A DNA stretch of 5,068 nt, from IMG/VR virus record IMGVR_UViG_2671180254_000011, one strand, 5' to 3'. This stretch comes from a virus. Lineage: Duplodnaviria; Heunggongvirae; Uroviricota; Caudoviricetes. The position numbers and the translations under genes were made by a program. Positions 1 to 5,068 of the stretch are shown here, in pieces (the first letter of the stretch is position 1; the number at the start of each line of letters is the position of its first letter). Below the pieces are notes generated by a model that was not told the origin of the DNA, searched no databases, and saw only the letters and a program-made list of their open reading frames with translations.

Positions 1-71
1 AGGAAACAACATGTTGGGTGGAGCGGACAATCCAAATGGCGAATTACCGTCTTATATCACTGGCGCTGACA

Positions 72-300
72 ATATCAATGATTTTCTGGTGCGTACCGGG
101 TTGAGAAGCGGTGTAAGTGAACTGCAGTTGCCATGTTTTACGGCAGTGAGAGCAGAGATAGCGCTGATGTCCGGCAGTGCCTTTTGCCGTTACGTACCAC
201 CCCGTCAGTAGCTGAACAGGAGGGACAGCTGATAGAAACAGAAGCCACTGGAGCACCTCAAAAACACCATCATACACTAAATCAGTAAGTTGGCAGCATC
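72..300 (-). mobile_element. insA: IS1 left-end fragment, truncated (about the first 229 bp of IS1: terminal inverted repeat plus 5' part of insA), oriented on the minus strand
   Basis: Reverse complement of 278-300 is ggtgatgctgccaacttactgat, the IS1 left inverted repeat as I recall it. Reverse complement of 72-300 follows the IS1 left end through the insA region; the ORF-track fragment [37 protein letters not shown] matches InsA. Similarity to IS1 stops abruptly below position 72. There appears to be a 1-nt insertion relative to the IS1 I recall near 165-190, shifting the insA N-terminus out of frame. Confidence 0.85.
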
Positions 301-410
301 ACCGAAGTGGTAAAGAAGATAATAAAGAATAATATTTAGGGTTATAGGTCTTAGCCCATTTTAAATGGAAGGCAGACATGCAGCCATGCATACTTCGCAT
401 GGCAACATAA

Positions 411-752
411 TTATTTAGACAAACTATCTAATTTTTGCGTCGCTTTTTGTGTTAGGTCGCTGTAACTGATAAACCCTACGTTAGCACCTACAATTAACAC
501 TAAGAACACTAAGCTGCATATGGATAGAGTGGCAGATTTATGCTTATGGAAAACAAAATATGCTACTATTGCACTTAATATGAAGGAAATGAATAGAAAT
601 ATAGATGTTGATGTTTTTAGATATTTTTCAGGAAATAATGGGTGAGCAATAATGTATACAAGATTAAGTAGTATATAAATTGCTACCGGAATGAAAATCA
701 TGCTCCAGTGTGTATCTTTTTTGGGAGGGATTGGCTGCAAATAATCAGACAC
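411..752 (-). CDS. hypothetical small integral membrane protein (113 aa, three predicted transmembrane segments); function unknown
   Basis: 114-codon open frame in very AT-rich DNA, where stop codons are frequent by chance. Three hydrophobic stretches: WSMIFIPVAIYILLNLVYIIAHPLF, SIFLFISFILSAIVAYFVF, LSICSLVFLVLIVGANVGFI. Same strand as, and 82 bp downstream of, the 835-1212 ORF. Start is ambiguous: GTG at 752 or in-frame ATG at 701, neither with a strong Shine-Dalgarno. Confidence 0.55.
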   Translation of the reverse strand: MSDYLQPIPPKKDTHWSMIFIPVAIYILLNLVYIIAHPLFPEKYLKTSTSIFLFISFILSAIVAYFVFHKHKSATLSICSLVFLVLIVGANVGFISYSDLTQKATQKLDSLSK

Positions 753-834
753 CGTTTTTCCATCAGTTTCAAGAAGAATTACTAGATCTCTTACTTCACC
801 ACTGACTTGAGTGCATCCTTAGTAGTAATGTTAA

Positions 835-1212
835 TCATTTTTTCCCTCCAAATACGATGCCCTCTACGTCTTTGGAAGCTTTTTGTGATGACCACTCCTC
901 TGAATCAGGTGATTTAATTAAAAATATTGTATCTCCATCAAAAATCGTATTTGTTCCGTAAAAATTCACATTTGATAGATCACCACCAAAAACCCTCTGC
1001 CCACTCGAGGTAATTGCCTCACCTAATTTAGTAAAATTACCAGCAATAGATGATTTTCTTTTTCCACTTCTATTCAAAGTGGCTTTAATTACACCACCAC
1101 CATCCTTAGAGTTAAATAATTGAATGTCCACTCCAGCAGTTGGTTGTATATATTTTGAAAGCTCTTTCTTGAACTTGTTAATATATTTATCTTTGTTTTC
1201 TTTGTTGGTCAT
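835..1212 (-). CDS. hypothetical soluble protein (125 aa), lysine-rich N-terminus, glycine-rich core; function unknown
   Basis: 126-codon open frame in AT-rich DNA. No hydrophobic signal peptide or transmembrane segment. First gene of an apparent two-gene minus-strand unit. I do not recognise the sequence (MTNKENKDKYINKFKKELSKY...GIVFGGKK). Confidence 0.55.
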   Translation of the reverse strand: MTNKENKDKYINKFKKELSKYIQPTAGVDIQLFNSKDGGGVIKATLNRSGKRKSSIAGNFTKLGEAITSSGQRVFGGDLSNVNFYGTNTIFDGDTIFLIKSPDSEEWSSQKASKDVEGIVFGGKK

Positions 1213-1299
1213 TGGTTAGATCCATAGTTCTGGCTGTGATTAGGTGAAAGTATACAAGGTTTTTAAAGCGAAGATCACTGTTTTGGCTTCAAGATAGTT

Positions 1300-1328
1300 T
1301 TGATTTATCGTAATCAATCCGCCATAAT
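1300..1328 (+). promoter_or_regulatory. candidate sigma70 promoter for the plus-strand nin-region chain
   Basis: TTGATT (1300-1305), 17-nt spacer, CATAAT (1323-1328). Sits at the AT-rich/backbone composition boundary, about 55 nt upstream of the small ORF and about 150 nt upstream of ybcN. Confidence 0.4.
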
Positions 1329-1365
1329 CCTCTCATCGGAGCCTGAACAACTCCGGTGACTTCTG

Positions 1366-1389
1366 CGCATTTAAGGGGACTTAAATGCG
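1366..1389 (+). promoter_or_regulatory. perfect 10-bp inverted repeat with 4-nt loop (cgcatttaag-ggga-cttaaatgcg) overlapping the ribosome-binding site and ATG of the small ORF
   Basis: Arms 1366-1375 and 1380-1389 are exact reverse complements. The loop GGGA is part of the AAGGGGA Shine-Dalgarno-like element, and the ATG at 1385-1387 lies in the 3' arm. No U-tract follows on either strand, so it is not a typical intrinsic terminator. Confidence 0.35.
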
Positions 1390-1480
1390 ACCACAATCTG
1401 AACTCATCACCTTGTCACAGATGCAGAAATGCACCTGCGATTTTCTGCATTCTGCGGTTTCCGTTAGGGAGGCCGTATGA
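1385..1480 (+). CDS. small ORF (31 aa, MRPQSELITLSQMQKCTCDFLHSAVSVREAV), positionally equivalent to the small ylcH-type gene preceding ybcN in DLP12-like prophages
   Basis: ATG at 1385 preceded by AAGGGGA with 5-nt spacing. Its stop TGA (1478-1480) overlaps the ybcN ATG (1477-1479) as ATGA, suggesting translational coupling. Below the ORF-track length cutoff; identity not verified. Confidence 0.3.
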   Translation: MRPQSELITLSQMQKCTCDFLHSAVSVREAV

Positions 1481-1932
1481 CTCTGCCAGTAGACGGCATC
1501 AAACTCCATCGCGGTAACTTCGCGGCCATCGGCCAGCAGATTCAGCCATTGCTGGATGCCGGGCAATGCTTACGCCTGCAGGTTAAGCCGTGGCGCGAGA
1601 AGCGCAGCCTGTCGCAGAACGCGCTCAGCCACATGTGGTACACGGAGATCAGCGAATATCTCATCGCCCGCGGCAAGACCTTCGCTACGCCTGAGTGGGT
1701 CAAAGACGCGATGAAGCACACCTATCTCGGCTACGAAAGCAAAGACCGTGTAGATGTCGTGTCCGGCGAGGTCACCACCGTCCAATCCCTCCGCCATACG
1801 TCAGAGCTGGAAACCGGCGAGATGTACATCTTCCTGTGCAAAGTCGAAGCCTGGGCGATGAATATCGGCTGCCACCTGACAATTCCGCAGAGCTGTGAAT
1901 ACCAGCAGCTGCGCGATAAGCAGGAGGCGTAA
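1477..1932 (+). CDS. ybcN: NinB/Orf-family recombination mediator (DLP12 YbcN-like, 151 aa)
   Basis: 151-aa ORF with AGGGAGG Shine-Dalgarno 4 nt upstream. The segment RSLSQNALSHMWYTEI resembles the conserved RSL-QN region of lambda NinB/Orf. Length and gene order (before ninE, ybcO, rusA) match the DLP12 nin region as I recall it. Confidence 0.8.
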   Translation: MTLPVDGIKLHRGNFAAIGQQIQPLLDAGQCLRLQVKPWREKRSLSQNALSHMWYTEISEYLIARGKTFATPEWVKDAMKHTYLGYESKDRVDVVSGEVTTVQSLRHTSELETGEMYIFLCKVEAWAMNIGCHLTIPQSCEYQQLRDKQEA

Positions 1933-2102
1933 TGGCTACACCGCTTATTCGTGTCATGAACGGGCACATCTACAGAGTATCAAATCGTCGTAAGCGTAAG
2001 CCTGAGCTGAAGCCATCCGAAATACCAACACTGCTCGGATATACCGCTAGCCTGGTTGATAAAAAATGGTTGCGACTGGCAGCAAGGAGGAATCATGGCT
2101 GA
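1932..2102 (+). CDS. ninE: NinE-family protein (56 aa)
   Basis: Manual translation from ATG 1932: MATPLIRVMNGHIYRVSNRRKRKPELKPSEIPTLLGYTASLVDKKWLRLAARRNHG, stop TGA 2100-2102. AGGAGG 4 nt upstream. Start overlaps the ybcN stop (TAATG). Matches DLP12 NinE in length and basic character. Absent from the ORF track only because of size. Confidence 0.75.
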   Translation: MATPLIRVMNGHIYRVSNRRKRKPELKPSEIPTLLGYTASLVDKKWLRLAARRNHG

Positions 2103-2158
2103 TTTGAGAAAAGCAGCGCGTGGTCGGGAATGCCAGGTAAGAATCCCTGGCGTATGTA
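2095..2158 (+). CDS. ybcO: YbcO (DUF1364-type putative nuclease), 5' portion only; remainder lies in the N gap
   Basis: ATG at 2095 with AGGAGG 4 nt upstream. Translation MADLRKAARGRECQVRIPGVC matches the N-terminus of DLP12 YbcO as I recall it. Overlaps the ninE 3' end by 8 nt. If the gap length were exact the frame would end at 2379 (TLASEQ stop), but this is unverifiable. Confidence 0.7.
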
Positions 2159-2356
2159 NNNNNNNNNNNNNNNNNNNNNNNNNNNNNNNNNNNNNNNNNN
2201 NNNNNNNNNNNNNNNNNNNNNNNNNNNNNNNNNNNNNNNNNNNNNNNNNNNNNNNNNNNNNNNNNNNNNNNNNNNNNNNNNNNNNNNNNNNNNNNNNNNN
2301 NNNNNNNNNNNNNNNNNNNNNNNNNNNNNNNNNNNNNNNNNNNNNNNNNNNNNNNN
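2159..2356. other. run of 198 N (assembly gap or masked sequence)
   Basis: Uninterrupted N characters, seen directly. The run falls inside ybcO and removes the first 7 codons or so of rusA. Confidence 0.99.
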
Positions 2357-2698
2357 TTACCCTGGCCTCCGAGCAATAACCGCTATTACCGCCATAATCG
2401 CGGGCGCACACACATCAGCGCAGAAGGGCAGGCATACCGCGATAACGTCACCCGAATCATTAAAAACGCAATGCTGGATATCGGCCTGGCTATGCCAGTG
2501 AAAATCCGTATTGAGTGCCACATGCCGGATCGCCGTCGCCGTGACCTGGATAATCTGCAAAAAGCCGCTTTTGACGCACTCACCAAAGCAGGTTTCTGGC
2601 TGGATGATGCTCAGGTCGTTGATTACCGCGTTGTGAAGATGCCTGTTACCAAAGGTGGGAGGCTGGAACTGACCATCACCGAAATGGGGAATGAATGA
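2357..2698 (+). CDS. rusA: RusA Holliday-junction resolvase, 5'-truncated by the gap (113 of about 120 codons visible)
   Basis: Frame beginning at 2357 translates [30 protein letters not shown]...[14 protein letters not shown] then stop at 2696-2698. This matches my recollection of E. coli RusA from residue 8 onward almost exactly. Confidence 0.88.
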
Positions 2699-2835
2699 TG
2701 TTTGAGTTTTATATGGCAGAACTTCTTCGCCACCGCTGGGGGCATCTGCGCTTATATCGTTTCCCCGGTTCTGTTTTGACCGATTACCGAATACTGAAGA
2801 ATTACGCCAAAACCCTGACAGGAGCAGGAGTATGA
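2698..2835 (+). CDS. ylcG: YlcG-like small protein (45 aa)
   Basis: Manual translation from ATG 2698: [45 protein letters not shown], stop 2833-2835. Start overlaps the rusA stop (TGATG). Matches DLP12 YlcG as recalled. Confidence 0.7.
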   Translation: MFEFYMAELLRHRWGHLRLYRFPGSVLTDYRILKNYAKTLTGAGV

Positions 2836-2920
2836 AGTCAGAGATAACAATCAACTAATACTGTTTTGTTGATTTTTGCTTGTAATTGGCGTTCTGGTCT
2901 GATTTTTGTGGAGTAAGTTG

Positions 2921-3304
2921 ATGCGTGATATTCAGATGGTTCTTGAGCGTTGGGGAGCGTGGGCGGCTAATAATCATGAAGATGTGACCTGGTCGTCCAT
3001 TGCCGCCGGTTTTAAGGGATTAATTACTTCAAAAGTAAAATCTCGCCCGCAATGTTGTGACGATGACGCGATGATTATTTGCGGGTGCATGGCCCGTCTG
3101 AAAAAGAACAACAGCGATTTGCACGATTTATTAGTAGATTATTATGTAGTCGGTATGACATTCATGTCACTGGCAGGTAAGCATTGCTGCTCTGATGGTT
3201 ATATCGGGAAAAGGTTACAGAAGGCTGAGGGCATAATTGAAGGGATGTTAATGGCATTAGATATCCGGTTAGAGATGGATATCGTTGTTAATAACTCTAA
3301 TTAA
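2921..3304 (+). CDS. quuD: Q-family late-gene antiterminator (phage 82 / DLP12 QuuD type, 127 aa)
   Basis: ATG at 2921 with GGAG 7 nt upstream. [33 protein letters not shown]...DIVVNNSN matches QuuD as I recall it. The ORF-track start at 2906 is a TTG-initiated upstream extension that I do not favour. Confidence 0.85.
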
Positions 3305-3319
3305 TATGCCAATTGTTTA

Positions 3320-3355
3320 CTAAAAATTATTAAAAATGGGGCGTTGCAACGCCCC
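3320..3355 (-). terminator. candidate rho-independent terminator for minus-strand (porin) transcripts
   Basis: GC-rich perfect palindrome ggggcgttgcaacgcccc (3338-3355). On the minus strand it is followed by the T-rich tract atttttaataattttta; on the plus strand it is followed by A-rich sequence, so it looks unidirectional. Confidence 0.5.
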
Positions 3356-3443
3356 CAAAAATAAAGGGTAATATATAACAGAAGGTTTATATAGTTAGAA
3401 GCAAGGTTGTGCTCCTAAAGGAAGTGGCTTGAGGGAGCCACTT

Positions 3444-3482
3444 ATATGTTGGGGAGGCAAAGCCTCCCGCAACATATCTTTT
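3444..3482 (+). terminator. candidate rho-independent terminator for plus-strand transcripts leaving the quuD region (tR'-like position)
   Basis: Arms atatgttggggaggc (3444-3458) and gcctcccgcaacatat (3462-3477) pair with one bulged C around an aaa loop, followed by cttttagt. Lies 11 bp from the porin stop codon. Confidence 0.45.
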
Positions 3483-3492
3483 AGTAATCAAA

Positions 3493-4575
3493 TTAGAACT
3501 GGTAAACCATACCTACAGCAACGATATCATCGGTAGCAACGCCAGATGCTTTCGTGAAATCGCTCTTATCAATCAGGTTGATTTTGTAATCAACAAAAGT
3601 GGACATATTTTTGTTGAAGTAATAGGTTGCACCTACATCAATATATTCAACCAGGTCCTGATCACCCCACGCACCCAAGTCTTTTCCTTTAGATTGCAGG
3701 TAAGCAACGGACGGACGCAGACCGAAGTCGAACTGATATTGTGCAACTACTTCGAAGTTTTGTGCTTTGTTGGCAATATGGTTATTACCAAAAACAGTCA
3801 TGTTCTGGGTTTCAGAATAGGTGGTAGCCAGATAGATGTTGTTCGCATCATATTTCAGACCAGCTGCCCATACTTCAGCATTTTGACCAGATGCATTCAG
3901 GCTGTTGTTACCGTAGATAACCTGATTATTAGTGCGGTCAGATTTAGCATAGGTTGCACCTACACCGAATCCTTCATACTCATAAGTAGTGGAGAAACCG
4001 AAACCATCACCATTAGCTTCAGTTACGTCAGTGCGGTCATTTTTACCCTGATACTGAGCAGCAAAGTTCAGACCATCAACCAGACCAAAGAAGTCGTTGT
4101 TACGATAAGTTGCAACACCAGTGGTGCGACCAGTCATGAACACATCTGTTTGAGTCCAAGTGTCACCACCGAATTCTGGCAGGACGTCAGTCCACGCACC
4201 GATGTCGTATGCTACACCGTAGTTACGGCCGTAATCGATGGAGCCGTAGTCACCGAATTTCAGGCCAGCGAAGGCAAGACGGGTTTTATCTTTGGAGGAA
4301 CCTTGAGATTCAGCGCGGTTGCCTTTGAATTCATATTCCCACTGACCGAAACCAGTCAGTTGATCGTTGATTTGGGTTTCACCTTTGAAGCCAAGACGGG
4401 CATAAGTAGTATCACCATCATCTGCATCATTAGAGGAGAAGTAGTGCTTAGCATTAACTTTCCCGTACAGATCCAGCTTGTTACTGTCTTTATTATAAAT
4501 TTCAGCTGCCTGAGCAGACATCGCCATCAGTACTGATGCAGCTACAGCAGAAATTGCCACTGTTAATTTTTTCAT
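3493..4575 (-). CDS. nmpC: outer-membrane general porin of the OmpC/OmpF/PhoE family, prophage-encoded NmpC/Lc type (360 aa precursor with signal peptide)
   Basis: Start assigned to ATG 4575 ([23 protein letters not shown] then [17 protein letters not shown]...), a typical signal peptide with AQA-A cleavage motif. Porin hallmarks are present: [58 protein letters not shown]-terminal VYQF. The 20-codon N-terminal extension in the ORF track (to 4635) is rejected. Confidence 0.9.
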
Positions 4576-4854
4576 CGTGAGCCCTTTTTTTGAACTATTA
4601 TTAAAAAATGATGTCATTGCGCGATAAATATTCATCTAATCAATGTGATTATTTCAAGATGTAAGTTTTGGTTTCTCGTTTGATTTGTGAAGTAGATCTC
4701 TATTTTTATCTGAACTTTTTTCTATCGAATCCTATTCATGGCTCTTGACTGAATAAAAATAAATCTATTAGCCAATTTATATTAACGGCTGTTATTTATA
4801 AGTGCTCTATAATTTGAAGGTTCAATTTAAACCGGCTAAAAATAACACTGGAAA

Positions 4855-4876
4855 TTATTTGTTGGTTATTTGTTGG
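4855..4876. repeat. 11-bp tandem direct repeat (ttatttgttgg x2)
   Basis: Exact adjacent copies at 4855-4865 and 4866-4876, in the AT-rich region about 280 bp upstream of the porin start. Confidence 0.5.
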
Positions 4877-4965
4877 GATTTGCTTATGTATTTGTAGTGG
4901 TGTTTTCAATACTCGGTAGCATTCTCGCAAATATCATTTAGTGGTTTACGTACGTAAAAAATTGG

Positions 4966-5068
4966 GGTAATGACTCCAACTTATTGATAGTGTTTTATGT
5001 TCAGATAATGCCCGATGACTTTGTCATGCAGCTCCACCGATTTTGAGAACGACAGCGACTTCCGTCCC
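4966..5068 (-). mobile_element. IS1 right end (right inverted repeat and adjacent 3' region), element continuing beyond the window end
   Basis: 4966-4988 reads ggtaatgactccaacttattgat, the IS1 right inverted repeat as recalled. The following about 80 nt (gtgttttatgttcagataatgcccgatgactttgtcatgcagctccaccgattttgagaacgacagcgacttccgtccc) match the complement of the IS1 3' region, so the IS1 body including insAB lies to the right on the minus strand. Confidence 0.9.

Follow-up and report, generated by a model that had tools for sequence, protein, structure and literature searches.

A mobile two-gene cassette in a DLP12-like prophage remnant: a conserved protein family pair, present here as a defective copy

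What is an AT-rich pair of small genes doing in the middle of a lambdoid prophage, is it still intact there, and could it be, as had been suspected, an exclusion, abortive-infection or toxin module of a kind that has so far escaped description? These questions are raised by the virus record IMGVR_UViG_2671180254_000011 of IMG/VR (Caudoviricetes; its whole stretch of 5,068 nucleotides is called "the window" below), which represents a piece of a lambdoid prophage resembling DLP12, and of which a preliminary description, made from the letters alone, had singled out positions 301 to about 1300 as a two-gene cargo cassette and as the best candidate for an undescribed system. The two genes, both on the minus strand, are referred to here as gene A (the upstream one, encoding a soluble protein) and gene B (the downstream one, encoding a small membrane protein). 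The structural part of the answer is secure: the cassette is a mobile two-gene operon, A and B make up a new conserved family pair, and the copy residing in the window is defective.

That the region stands apart from its surroundings is already seen in its composition, the GC content being 0.343 at window positions 304–1300 as opposed to 0.499 across ninB..quuD (1477–3304), and the GC content of third codon positions 0.26 in gene A as opposed to 0.76 in ninB, so that the compositional break that had been reported for 301 to about 1300 is real. Its edges are sharp as well: on the right, 2,778 of the 5,426 complete Escherichia coli genomes compared (K-12 included) align only from about window position 1298 rightward, and 46 of the 5,426 continue leftward past it; in all 46 of these carriers the cassette is at least 99% identical, yet the flanks drop to about 93%. 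On the left, homology to the prophage of E. coli A7 (L001), which is intact and has its cassette at about 1,326,080–1,327,250 of NZ_CP028767.1, begins at window position 303, and since the "replication protein P" coding sequence of that prophage ends (at locus position 9030) at what is position 332 of the window, 304–332 has to be the stump of gene P, everything farther left having been replaced by the insertion sequence (IS) IS1. The right edge as first drawn (1300) was therefore accurate to 2–3 nt, whereas the true left edge is 333 (Table 1). Deviant composition, sharp homology boundaries and a presence that varies among related prophages, i.e., the features by which prophage morons are recognised, are all found in this cassette, which is a separately acquired prophage moron at a variable slot.

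The variability of the slot, which had been put down to a swap of cargo, is borne out by its other contents: in DLP12 of K-12 it holds emrE-ylcJ-ybcK-ybcL-ybcM, and in another strain ren-emrE-ybcK. With these morons of the replication–nin slot (ren, emrE, ybcK/L/M) the A-B cassette has the location, the sharp boundaries and the variable presence in common; they are, however, co-oriented with the surrounding operon, whereas the A-B cassette differs in gene content and is transcribed antisense to the early-right operon. In the enterobacterial prophages the pair always has the replication module on one side and the nin region on the other and is always in this antisense orientation, and both slot and orientation are kept across O/P, DnaB-type and DnaC-type replication modules and with either NinB or DUF1367 on the nin side; Klebsiella and Enterobacter prophages, whose replication and nin modules differ, carry the pair in the identical place and orientation. 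Yet another kind of cargo is seen in L008 (5665–7348 and 9118–10971), where the P-to-ninB slot contains, in addition to the pair, a colicin-like open reading frame (ORF) of 377 aa and a convergent colicin-immunity-like ORF of 174 aa, with HNH and DndB-like ORFs on the other side, the Pfam matches being weak.

As for the two genes themselves, the two same-strand ORFs that had been described on the minus strand are present, at 835–1212 (125 aa) and at 411–752 (113 aa, from a GTG), and the former is indeed an intact gene for a soluble protein, gene A. The 113-aa "protein", by contrast, turned out to be an artefact of a single-nucleotide deletion, and so did the reported spacing of 82 bp, which is nothing else than the frameshifted 5' part of gene B: intact B counts 142 aa, and its ATG (838–836) overlaps the TGA of gene A (837–835) as ATGA. 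Because of the deletion at 813/814, the authentic frame of B reads MINITTKDALKSVVK and then stops, and the 113-aa ORF, being without the N-terminal 29 residues of intact B, is what remains open out of frame; matches to every intact genome listed run one base longer than the window query. The annotation of the locus is hereby corrected to one pseudogene in place of a 113-aa gene. As the window copy is a frameshifted pseudogene, the locus is very unlikely to be a working system, and the module of the window is dead.

The part of B that is lost through the frameshift is also its most conserved one. Intact B is built of a conserved N-terminal segment of about 36 aa, three transmembrane (TM) helices and a short polar tail, and residues 1–36 are near-invariant in enterobacterial homologs, the proportion of nonsynonymous differences being 0–0.095 over codons 1–36 at a proportion of synonymous differences of 0.5–0.87; the segment includes the stretch EG-x-x-x-E-[IL]-[KR]-D. 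The identical deletion is found in L016, L023, L025 and L030 and is missing from L022, though the IS1 junction is common to them; as L022 combines that junction with an intact B, the frameshift must have arisen after the IS1 event. L025 carries a second frameshift atop the lesion of the window. Independent lesions of B are seen elsewhere, namely a frameshift at codon ~41 in a run of A (L024, 6375–6802) and a truncation at 73 aa (L038, from 5375), and so are lesions of gene A, i.e., an IS1 inside A with B left intact (CV839-06; L002, 6831–7528) and an in-frame stop in a metagenomic locus (L094, 872–1276).

Table 1. Features of the cassette and its immediate borders (positions are those of the window; a point in the strand column means that no strand applies).
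Feature	Positions	Strand	Remarks
IS flank	1..303	.	72–303 is the terminal portion of an IS1 copy
Replication gene P stump, last 29 nt	304..332	+	End of the "replication protein P" CDS of L001 (locus 9030) = window 332
AT-rich cargo cassette, 965 bp	333..1297	-	Terminator-like hairpin, gene B, gene A and upstream control region
GC-rich hairpin where P and gene B converge (gap of 78 nt)	339..357	.	Consensus scan; terminator-like
Gene B, frameshifted pseudogene	411..838	-	Intact form 142 aa, WP_000608370.1 (PGAP)
113-aa ORF, GTG start	411..752	-	Out-of-frame remainder of B, corresponding to residues 30–142 of intact B
Remnant of the authentic B frame	791..838	-	15 codons, MINITTKDALKSVVK, then TAA stop
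1-nt deletion inactivating B	813..814	.	GCC to GC on the plus strand, B codon 9; alignment to L001
Gene A, intact, 125 aa, soluble	835..1212	-	WP_000182282.1
Shine-Dalgarno sequence GGAGGG of B	844..849	-	Inside gene A, at its 3' end; the B ATG follows after 5 nt
-10-like hexamer TATACT	1249..1254	-	About 35 nt upstream of the gene A ATG
Start of the DLP12-type shared backbone, ylcH-like region 5' of ybcN/ninB	1298..1476	+	2,778 genomes align from 1298/1299

Signals that might control the cassette are listed in Table 1 as well. By its match to the consensus, the hairpin that separates P from gene B might serve as a terminator in both directions. A consensus scan called no sigma-70 promoter upstream of gene A, where no good -35 element was found; the -10-like hexamer is kept in position (as TATACT, TATGAT or TATAAT) among cassettes whose surroundings have diverged, and would be a candidate promoter of the cassette's own.

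Could both frames, nevertheless, be chance ORFs in AT-rich junk, given that the region is AT-rich, that no promoter was called upstream of A and that the window carries a broken version of one of the frames? The ratio of nonsynonymous to synonymous substitution rates (dN/dS) across cassettes, saturated at synonymous sites, is 0.07–0.11 for A and 0.07–0.19 for B, and values this low at a dS up to or beyond saturation, together with homologs in at least five phyla that keep the operon structure, rule this explanation out and leave it practically no chance; B, moreover, has a strong Shine-Dalgarno sequence in addition to the ATGA overlap, and both genes are annotated by PGAP and are members of PHROG families. 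Judged by their substitution patterns, A and B are real genes under strong purifying selection.

The predicted structures are of unequal quality. The AlphaFold2 (AF2) model of the gene A product is of low confidence (pLDDT 58, pTM 0.61) and consists of a helix, two strands, a helix, two strands and two helices, whereas that of B (pLDDT 74) opens with a pair of short strands and one helix, after which come three long TM helices, so that the three hydrophobic segments noticed beforehand are real by the model as well as by the comparison of homologs. Family-wide, the net charge of the loops of B is +1.3 for TM2–TM3 and +0.1 for TM1–TM2; as basic loops are cytoplasmic according to the positive-inside rule, the N-terminal segment and the TM2–TM3 loop of B are both predicted to be cytoplasmic, and the topology would be N-in, C-out, with the conserved segment in the same compartment as A. 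Searched by structure, A matched uncharacterised proteins of BFVD at best (E = 4.7e-3) and B nothing in the PDB below E = 0.7, so that the comparison of folds offered no usable lead; sequence-based PDB profile searches with A and B found nothing below E = 0.09.

Does the pair, then, belong to anything already described? Neither A nor B has a match in Pfam-A, NCBIfam or PADLOC (library versions: Pfam 2025, NCBIfam June 2026, PADLOC 2023, PDB 2026), and beyond the PHROGs, in which both are full-length members of families of "unknown function" (A of phrog_18061, B of phrog_16940), there was only sub-threshold TM noise. A Pfam-A scan of 60 A homologs and 20 B homologs yielded no family, PADLOC-DB v2.0.0 (2023; 5,027 models) no significant match for A or B (best E = 0.17), and a PADLOC scan of the 60 distant A homologs no match either. 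In full-text literature searches the RefSeq accessions, protein strings and PHROG identifiers of A and B were not found, keyword searches retrieved no described system at the P–ninB slot, and the identifiers of the two proteins are absent from the DefensePredictor and Vassallo 2022 supplements. The pair thus deserved to be called undescribed in every library searched, the remote-homology and PADLOC checks suggested at the outset having come back without a Pfam, PADLOC or PDB-profile match for either protein, and an unannotated protein-family pair (A, PHROG 18061; B, PHROG 16940), a possible submission to Pfam, is hereby defined.

Close homologs of the pair (63–100% identity) are restricted to the Enterobacteriaceae, i.e., E. 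coli/Shigella, Enterobacter and Klebsiella (a partial entry with 98 members among the gene A homologs is named Shigella sonnei), and a profile of the enterobacterial A sequences found nothing in 185,579 species-representative genomes, those of Escherichia, Klebsiella and Enterobacter included. When 1.84 billion representatives were searched exhaustively by HMMER with an A profile, on the other hand, 111 clusters came out at E<=1e-3, 30 of them at <=1e-10, nearly all of which are full-length (120–135 aa) and show the motifs Y-x-N-N-F-R, F-x-G-T-N and L-I-K-D...E-W...D-V; a tighter A profile located 16 loci in species-representative genomes and 67 metagenomic ones. Bacteroidota contribute Cellulophaga, Algibacter, Robertkochia, Mariniflexile, Flavobacterium, Bacteroides, Lentimicrobium and Cryomorphaceae, the loci outside this phylum come from Myxococcales, a deltaproteobacterium, Acidiferrales and a betaproteobacterium, and the full-length homologs are altogether spread over at least five phyla. 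One protein among the homologs, P0013 (127 aa; an ENA contig of 1,145 nt), has 50 C-terminal residues identical to those of gene A and an N-terminal part that matches pentapeptide-repeat Pfam families, and is probably a chimera resulting from rearrangement or misassembly.

The pairing of the two genes is obligate wherever it could be followed. Whether they always co-occur in related prophages had been put forward as a check, and in every enterobacterial prophage inspected B comes directly after A, with an overlap of 4 nt or 1 nt; outside the enterobacteria a B homolog directly follows A in all loci with enough downstream sequence (6/6, 16/16 and 56/56, 78 in total, two of which duplicate others, and 69 complete pairs are non-identical). 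The distant partner ORFs are 122–154 aa long, mostly start at an ATGA overlap with A, and have a soluble N-terminus of about 35–40 residues with the motif M-K-I-G-x-I-E-G-T-P-E-E-I-K-D...G-L-D...Y, a basic Q-L-R-F-K loop and a T-P-x-E tail; a simple hydropathy threshold calls three TM helices in 61 of the 69 distinct pairs, and the enterobacterial and distant B profiles align by hhalign at a probability of 98% (E = 2e-13, 113 columns). The architecture noticed in the window at first sight, a soluble protein next to a small multi-pass membrane one, is therefore real and conserved across the family. Pairwise identities of A and of B correlate with r = 0.85 over the 69 distinct pairs, which indicates that the two genes are inherited as a unit, with no swapping of partners. 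One B-like frame, in L114 (3165–4520), stays open for 452 codons, whereas that of the near-identical L116 stops at 140; in L114 either the next gene has become fused to B or the sequence is in error.

What might such a pair be for? The reading to which we would give slightly less than an even chance is that of a so far undescribed module of two components, Rex-like in architecture only, by which the intact pair would bring about phage exclusion or abortive infection (Abi), and the reasons for it are the moron position and orientation, the sporadic distribution on mobile DNA, the embedding in restriction-modification (R-M) and BREX operons, a fusion to an HNH domain and the analogy with the architecture of RexAB. 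The R-M case is that of an uncultured Bacteroides (L055, 3969–9919), where a Type III R-M system has the pair inserted between mod (methyltransferase, E = 2e-205) and res (restriction subunit, E = 2e-290), an HKD+Snf2 helicase and two small ORFs preceding it in the common orientation of all these genes; the BREX case is that of a deltaproteobacterial metagenome-assembled genome (L045, 2008–4147), in which the pair is located 112 nt upstream of brxA-brxB on the same strand and the contig ends before brxC. On a phage-like contig (L010) the pair runs antisense between the portal and sigma/terminase genes. In P0104 (447 aa; L061/L062, 246–1589), a single cluster known from 1.6-kb contigs only, the A domain (1–120) is fused to an McrA-like HNH motif at 191–231 (Pfam HNH 1.3e-12, McrA resemblance 3.5e-5), followed by about 210 uncharacterised C-terminal aa; the swapping of effectors is a recognised hallmark of immune modules. 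Four further A homologs (P0083, P0116, P0132, P0136) have N-terminal extensions, which are uncharacterised. Other defence or toxin genes seen near the pair are BstA (KilA-N + BstA_C) and NYN-domain proteins (L006, 13685–14446; L005, 15073–15513; L013, 4773–5381), and a RelA_SpoT-domain protein is encoded directly upstream of the pair in L014 (1838–2905).

The two genes form a translationally coupled operon, with A as a predicted cytoplasmic alpha/beta protein and B as a predicted inner-membrane protein. Under the exclusion/Abi reading B might act as the membrane effector, perturbing the membrane or blocking entry, and A as its cytoplasmic partner, a sensor or gatekeeper that would physically interact with, and act on, the N-terminal segment of B; the anti-phage function and the contact between the proteins, just like the promoter and the topology of B, are what we infer from the comparisons above. 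The deletion at B codon 9 in the window removes exactly the segment through which, on this mechanism, B would be addressed. Taken one step further, A-B could be a multi-phylum anti-phage family in which A is a portable sensor that gates the three-helix B via the 36-residue segment, may have an HNH nuclease as its effector instead, and can be slotted into R-M and BREX operons, a picture that we offer tentatively and would sooner expect to fail than to hold.

Of the known systems, RexA/RexB of phage lambda is the closest in layout: it too is a prophage two-gene operon with the soluble protein first and a polytopic inner-membrane protein of about 140 aa second, it is cargo expressed in the lysogen, as A-B may be, and the logic of a cytoplasmic partner controlling a membrane effector, as proposed for A-B, would be shared. 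RexAB excludes superinfecting T4 rII by depolarising the membrane. The resemblance does not extend to the sequences, since neither the Pfam-A scans (A, B, 60 A and 20 B homologs) nor PADLOC gave a match to the RexA or RexB families; RexA has 279 aa and A 125 aa, and RexB has four TM helices, whereas B has three predicted ones plus the conserved cytoplasmic N-terminal segment. Location differs too (the P–ninB slot for A-B, the immunity region for lambda RexAB), and the A-B family, unlike lambda RexAB, reaches into Bacteroidota, Myxococcota and Acidobacteriota. With Kiwa (KwaA/KwaB) and the TM effectors of CBASS and Pycsar the pair has in common the combination of a membrane and a soluble protein, the sporadic spread on mobile DNA and the occasional R-M or BREX neighbours, and it differs from them by having no PADLOC match, no nucleotide-signal synthase or recognisable sensor domain, and proteins that are both much smaller than most. 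Candidate defence pairs are by now numerous, and by analogy this one would fall within the Rex/Abi type of prophage cargo.

Several observations weigh against an exclusion/Abi function and ought to be taken together. Searches with tblastn found neither A nor B in 50,697 deposited phage genomes, nor A in 72,556 plasmids; no PADLOC model matches A, B or the 60 distant homologs of A; and the residues of A that are invariant (G86, K100, D115) or near-invariant (Y10, F84, T87, N88, W107) do not suggest a catalytic site. The recurrent inactivation of the pair fits a costly defence or toxin gene, and equally the neutral decay of cryptic prophages. Of 21 genomic loci outside the enterobacteria, only 2 could be seen to have known defence genes beside the pair, so that the association is suggestive and not statistically established, and many distant copies lie beside genes for carbamoyl-phosphate synthase, RuvX, peptide deformylase or tRNA synthetases. 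The 134 neighbouring ORFs of non-enteric pairs are a mixture in which housekeeping enzymes are frequent, IS66 transposases occur three times and defence genes form a minority, with some matches to PADLOC PDC/HEC candidate systems. The defence, exclusion or toxin function first proposed for the cassette gains support from its context, namely the R-M and BREX placement, the HNH fusion and the moron position, is weakened by the many distant copies among housekeeping genes, and may only be put forward as a suggestion.

The same neighbourhoods raise another possibility, namely that the cassette is host-fitness cargo, B being a small membrane transporter, a channel or an envelope-stress factor and A a cytoplasmic accessory, comparable to emrE in the K-12 slot. 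That emrE and ybcL/ybcM occupy the slot elsewhere among DLP12-type prophages, that many distant copies have housekeeping genes on either side and nothing obviously mobile or defensive nearby, and that neither protein shows signs of nuclease, NTPase or other classical immune activity are all compatible with this; it would, however, be unusual for a transporter that the most conserved part of B should be its 36-residue cytoplasmic segment instead of the TM helices, a total of about 111 clusters among 1.84 billion, scattered patchily over phyla, is typical of selfish or defence cargo, and the HNH fusion as well as the position inside a Type III R-M operon would be left unexplained. Host-fitness cargo is thus an improbable explanation in our opinion.

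The strict co-inheritance and the pattern of decay bear on a further reading, in which A-B would be a toxin-antitoxin (TA)-like addiction module that stabilises the mobile DNA carrying it, B being the membrane toxin and A the coupled antidote, with no dedicated anti-phage role. Small overlapping genes, co-inheritance, patchy horizontal spread and frequent decay are indeed what A-B shares with type II-like TA operons, in which the regulator-first order and the 4-nt overlap are typical, and the sporadic occurrence across phyla, in prophages, beside IS66 transposases and at otherwise housekeeping loci, the strict co-divergence of A and B, and the loss of B with the retention of A in the lineage of the window (the order of loss expected if B were harmful) would all be accounted for. 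A, on the other hand, has no recognisable DNA-binding antitoxin domain (no helix-turn-helix, ribbon-helix-helix or other antitoxin-type domain, unlike type II antitoxins), neither protein matches Pfam or NCBIfam, and we know of no counterpart of the conserved soluble N-terminal segment of B among small hydrophobic toxins. CV839-06, with its IS1 in A and an intact B, would be lethal in a classical TA system unless the insertion is polar on B, and the modularity of defence systems is a better match for the HNH fusion and for pairs embedded in R-M and BREX operons. An addiction module is therefore unlikely as the whole explanation, bearing in mind that TA and abortive-infection functions are not mutually exclusive.

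Finally, the location in a prophage invites the thought of a role in the phage's own life cycle, be it a Ren-like anti-exclusion function, a regulator of lysogeny or lysis timing, or a holin/antiholin-like pair. A "protein ren" is annotated in the slot of a related prophage (ren occupies this slot in lambda, too), and B is small with three TM helices, as class I holins are; yet the cassette runs counter to the lytic operon and at a distance from the lysis genes, neither Pfam nor PHROG returned a functional phage family such as holin or Ren, most members of the family occur outside recognisable phages, some of them within R-M or BREX operons, and the absence from all 50,697 deposited phage genomes counts here as well. 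A life-cycle role is very improbable as a result, and a holin or lysis function in particular is ruled out by position, orientation and the lack of homology, essD/rrrD being about 4 kb away on the other strand.

As to the rest of the window, its plus strand contains ybcN/ninB, ninE, ybcO, rusA, ylcG and quuD, and the prophage nin region to the right of the cassette was thus correctly recognised, as was the IS1 remnant to the left, positions 72–306 being 98.7% identical to another IS1 copy (with DDE_Tnp_IS1) in L016/L023. Positions 1–2158 are contiguous with L016 7211–5055, rve/IstB genes begin at L016 7242, and leftward beyond the IS1, in the complete chromosomes of the lineage of the window, there is an IS21-family element, with lacY nearby. 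The right end (4966–5068) runs on into an IS1 copy in these chromosomes and is, in our reading, the left end of an IS1; the prophage remnant at 304–4965 is bracketed by IS1 on both sides, in the same orientation as far as can be read from the sequence. The surrounding prophage has been gutted by IS1, and the window as a whole looks like an IS-bounded short-read contig. Including the flanks, it is 99.9–100% identical to three chromosomes of about 4.8 Mb (L016, L023, L025), all rich in IS1 and IS21, and the exact gene A protein recurs in 12,488 blocks of the assembly collection, mostly contigs of 2–5 kb. Its load of insertion sequences, the lacY close by and the 98-member partial entry mentioned above make a Shigella sonnei-like lineage probable. 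In a run of 198 N at 2159–2356 the 3' portion of ybcO and the 5' portion of rusA are hidden, so that ORF lists there are meaningless. An ompC/nmpC-type porin gene, the K-12 copy of which is interrupted by IS5, is intact at 3493–4575 on the minus strand, and the region upstream of it (4576–4965) is strongly AT-rich (GC 0.30).

For the window itself the message is a modest one: the cassette is real yet broken, in a prophage remnant bracketed by insertion sequences, and its lineage represents a natural loss-of-function allele that removes only the conserved N-terminal segment of B. If the intact pair is anti-phage, it would be a compact system of about 800 bp with no homology to catalogued ones, with a broad host range from Enterobacteriaceae to Bacteroidota, Myxococcota and Acidobacteriota, and its simple architecture would make it well suited for mechanistic dissection.

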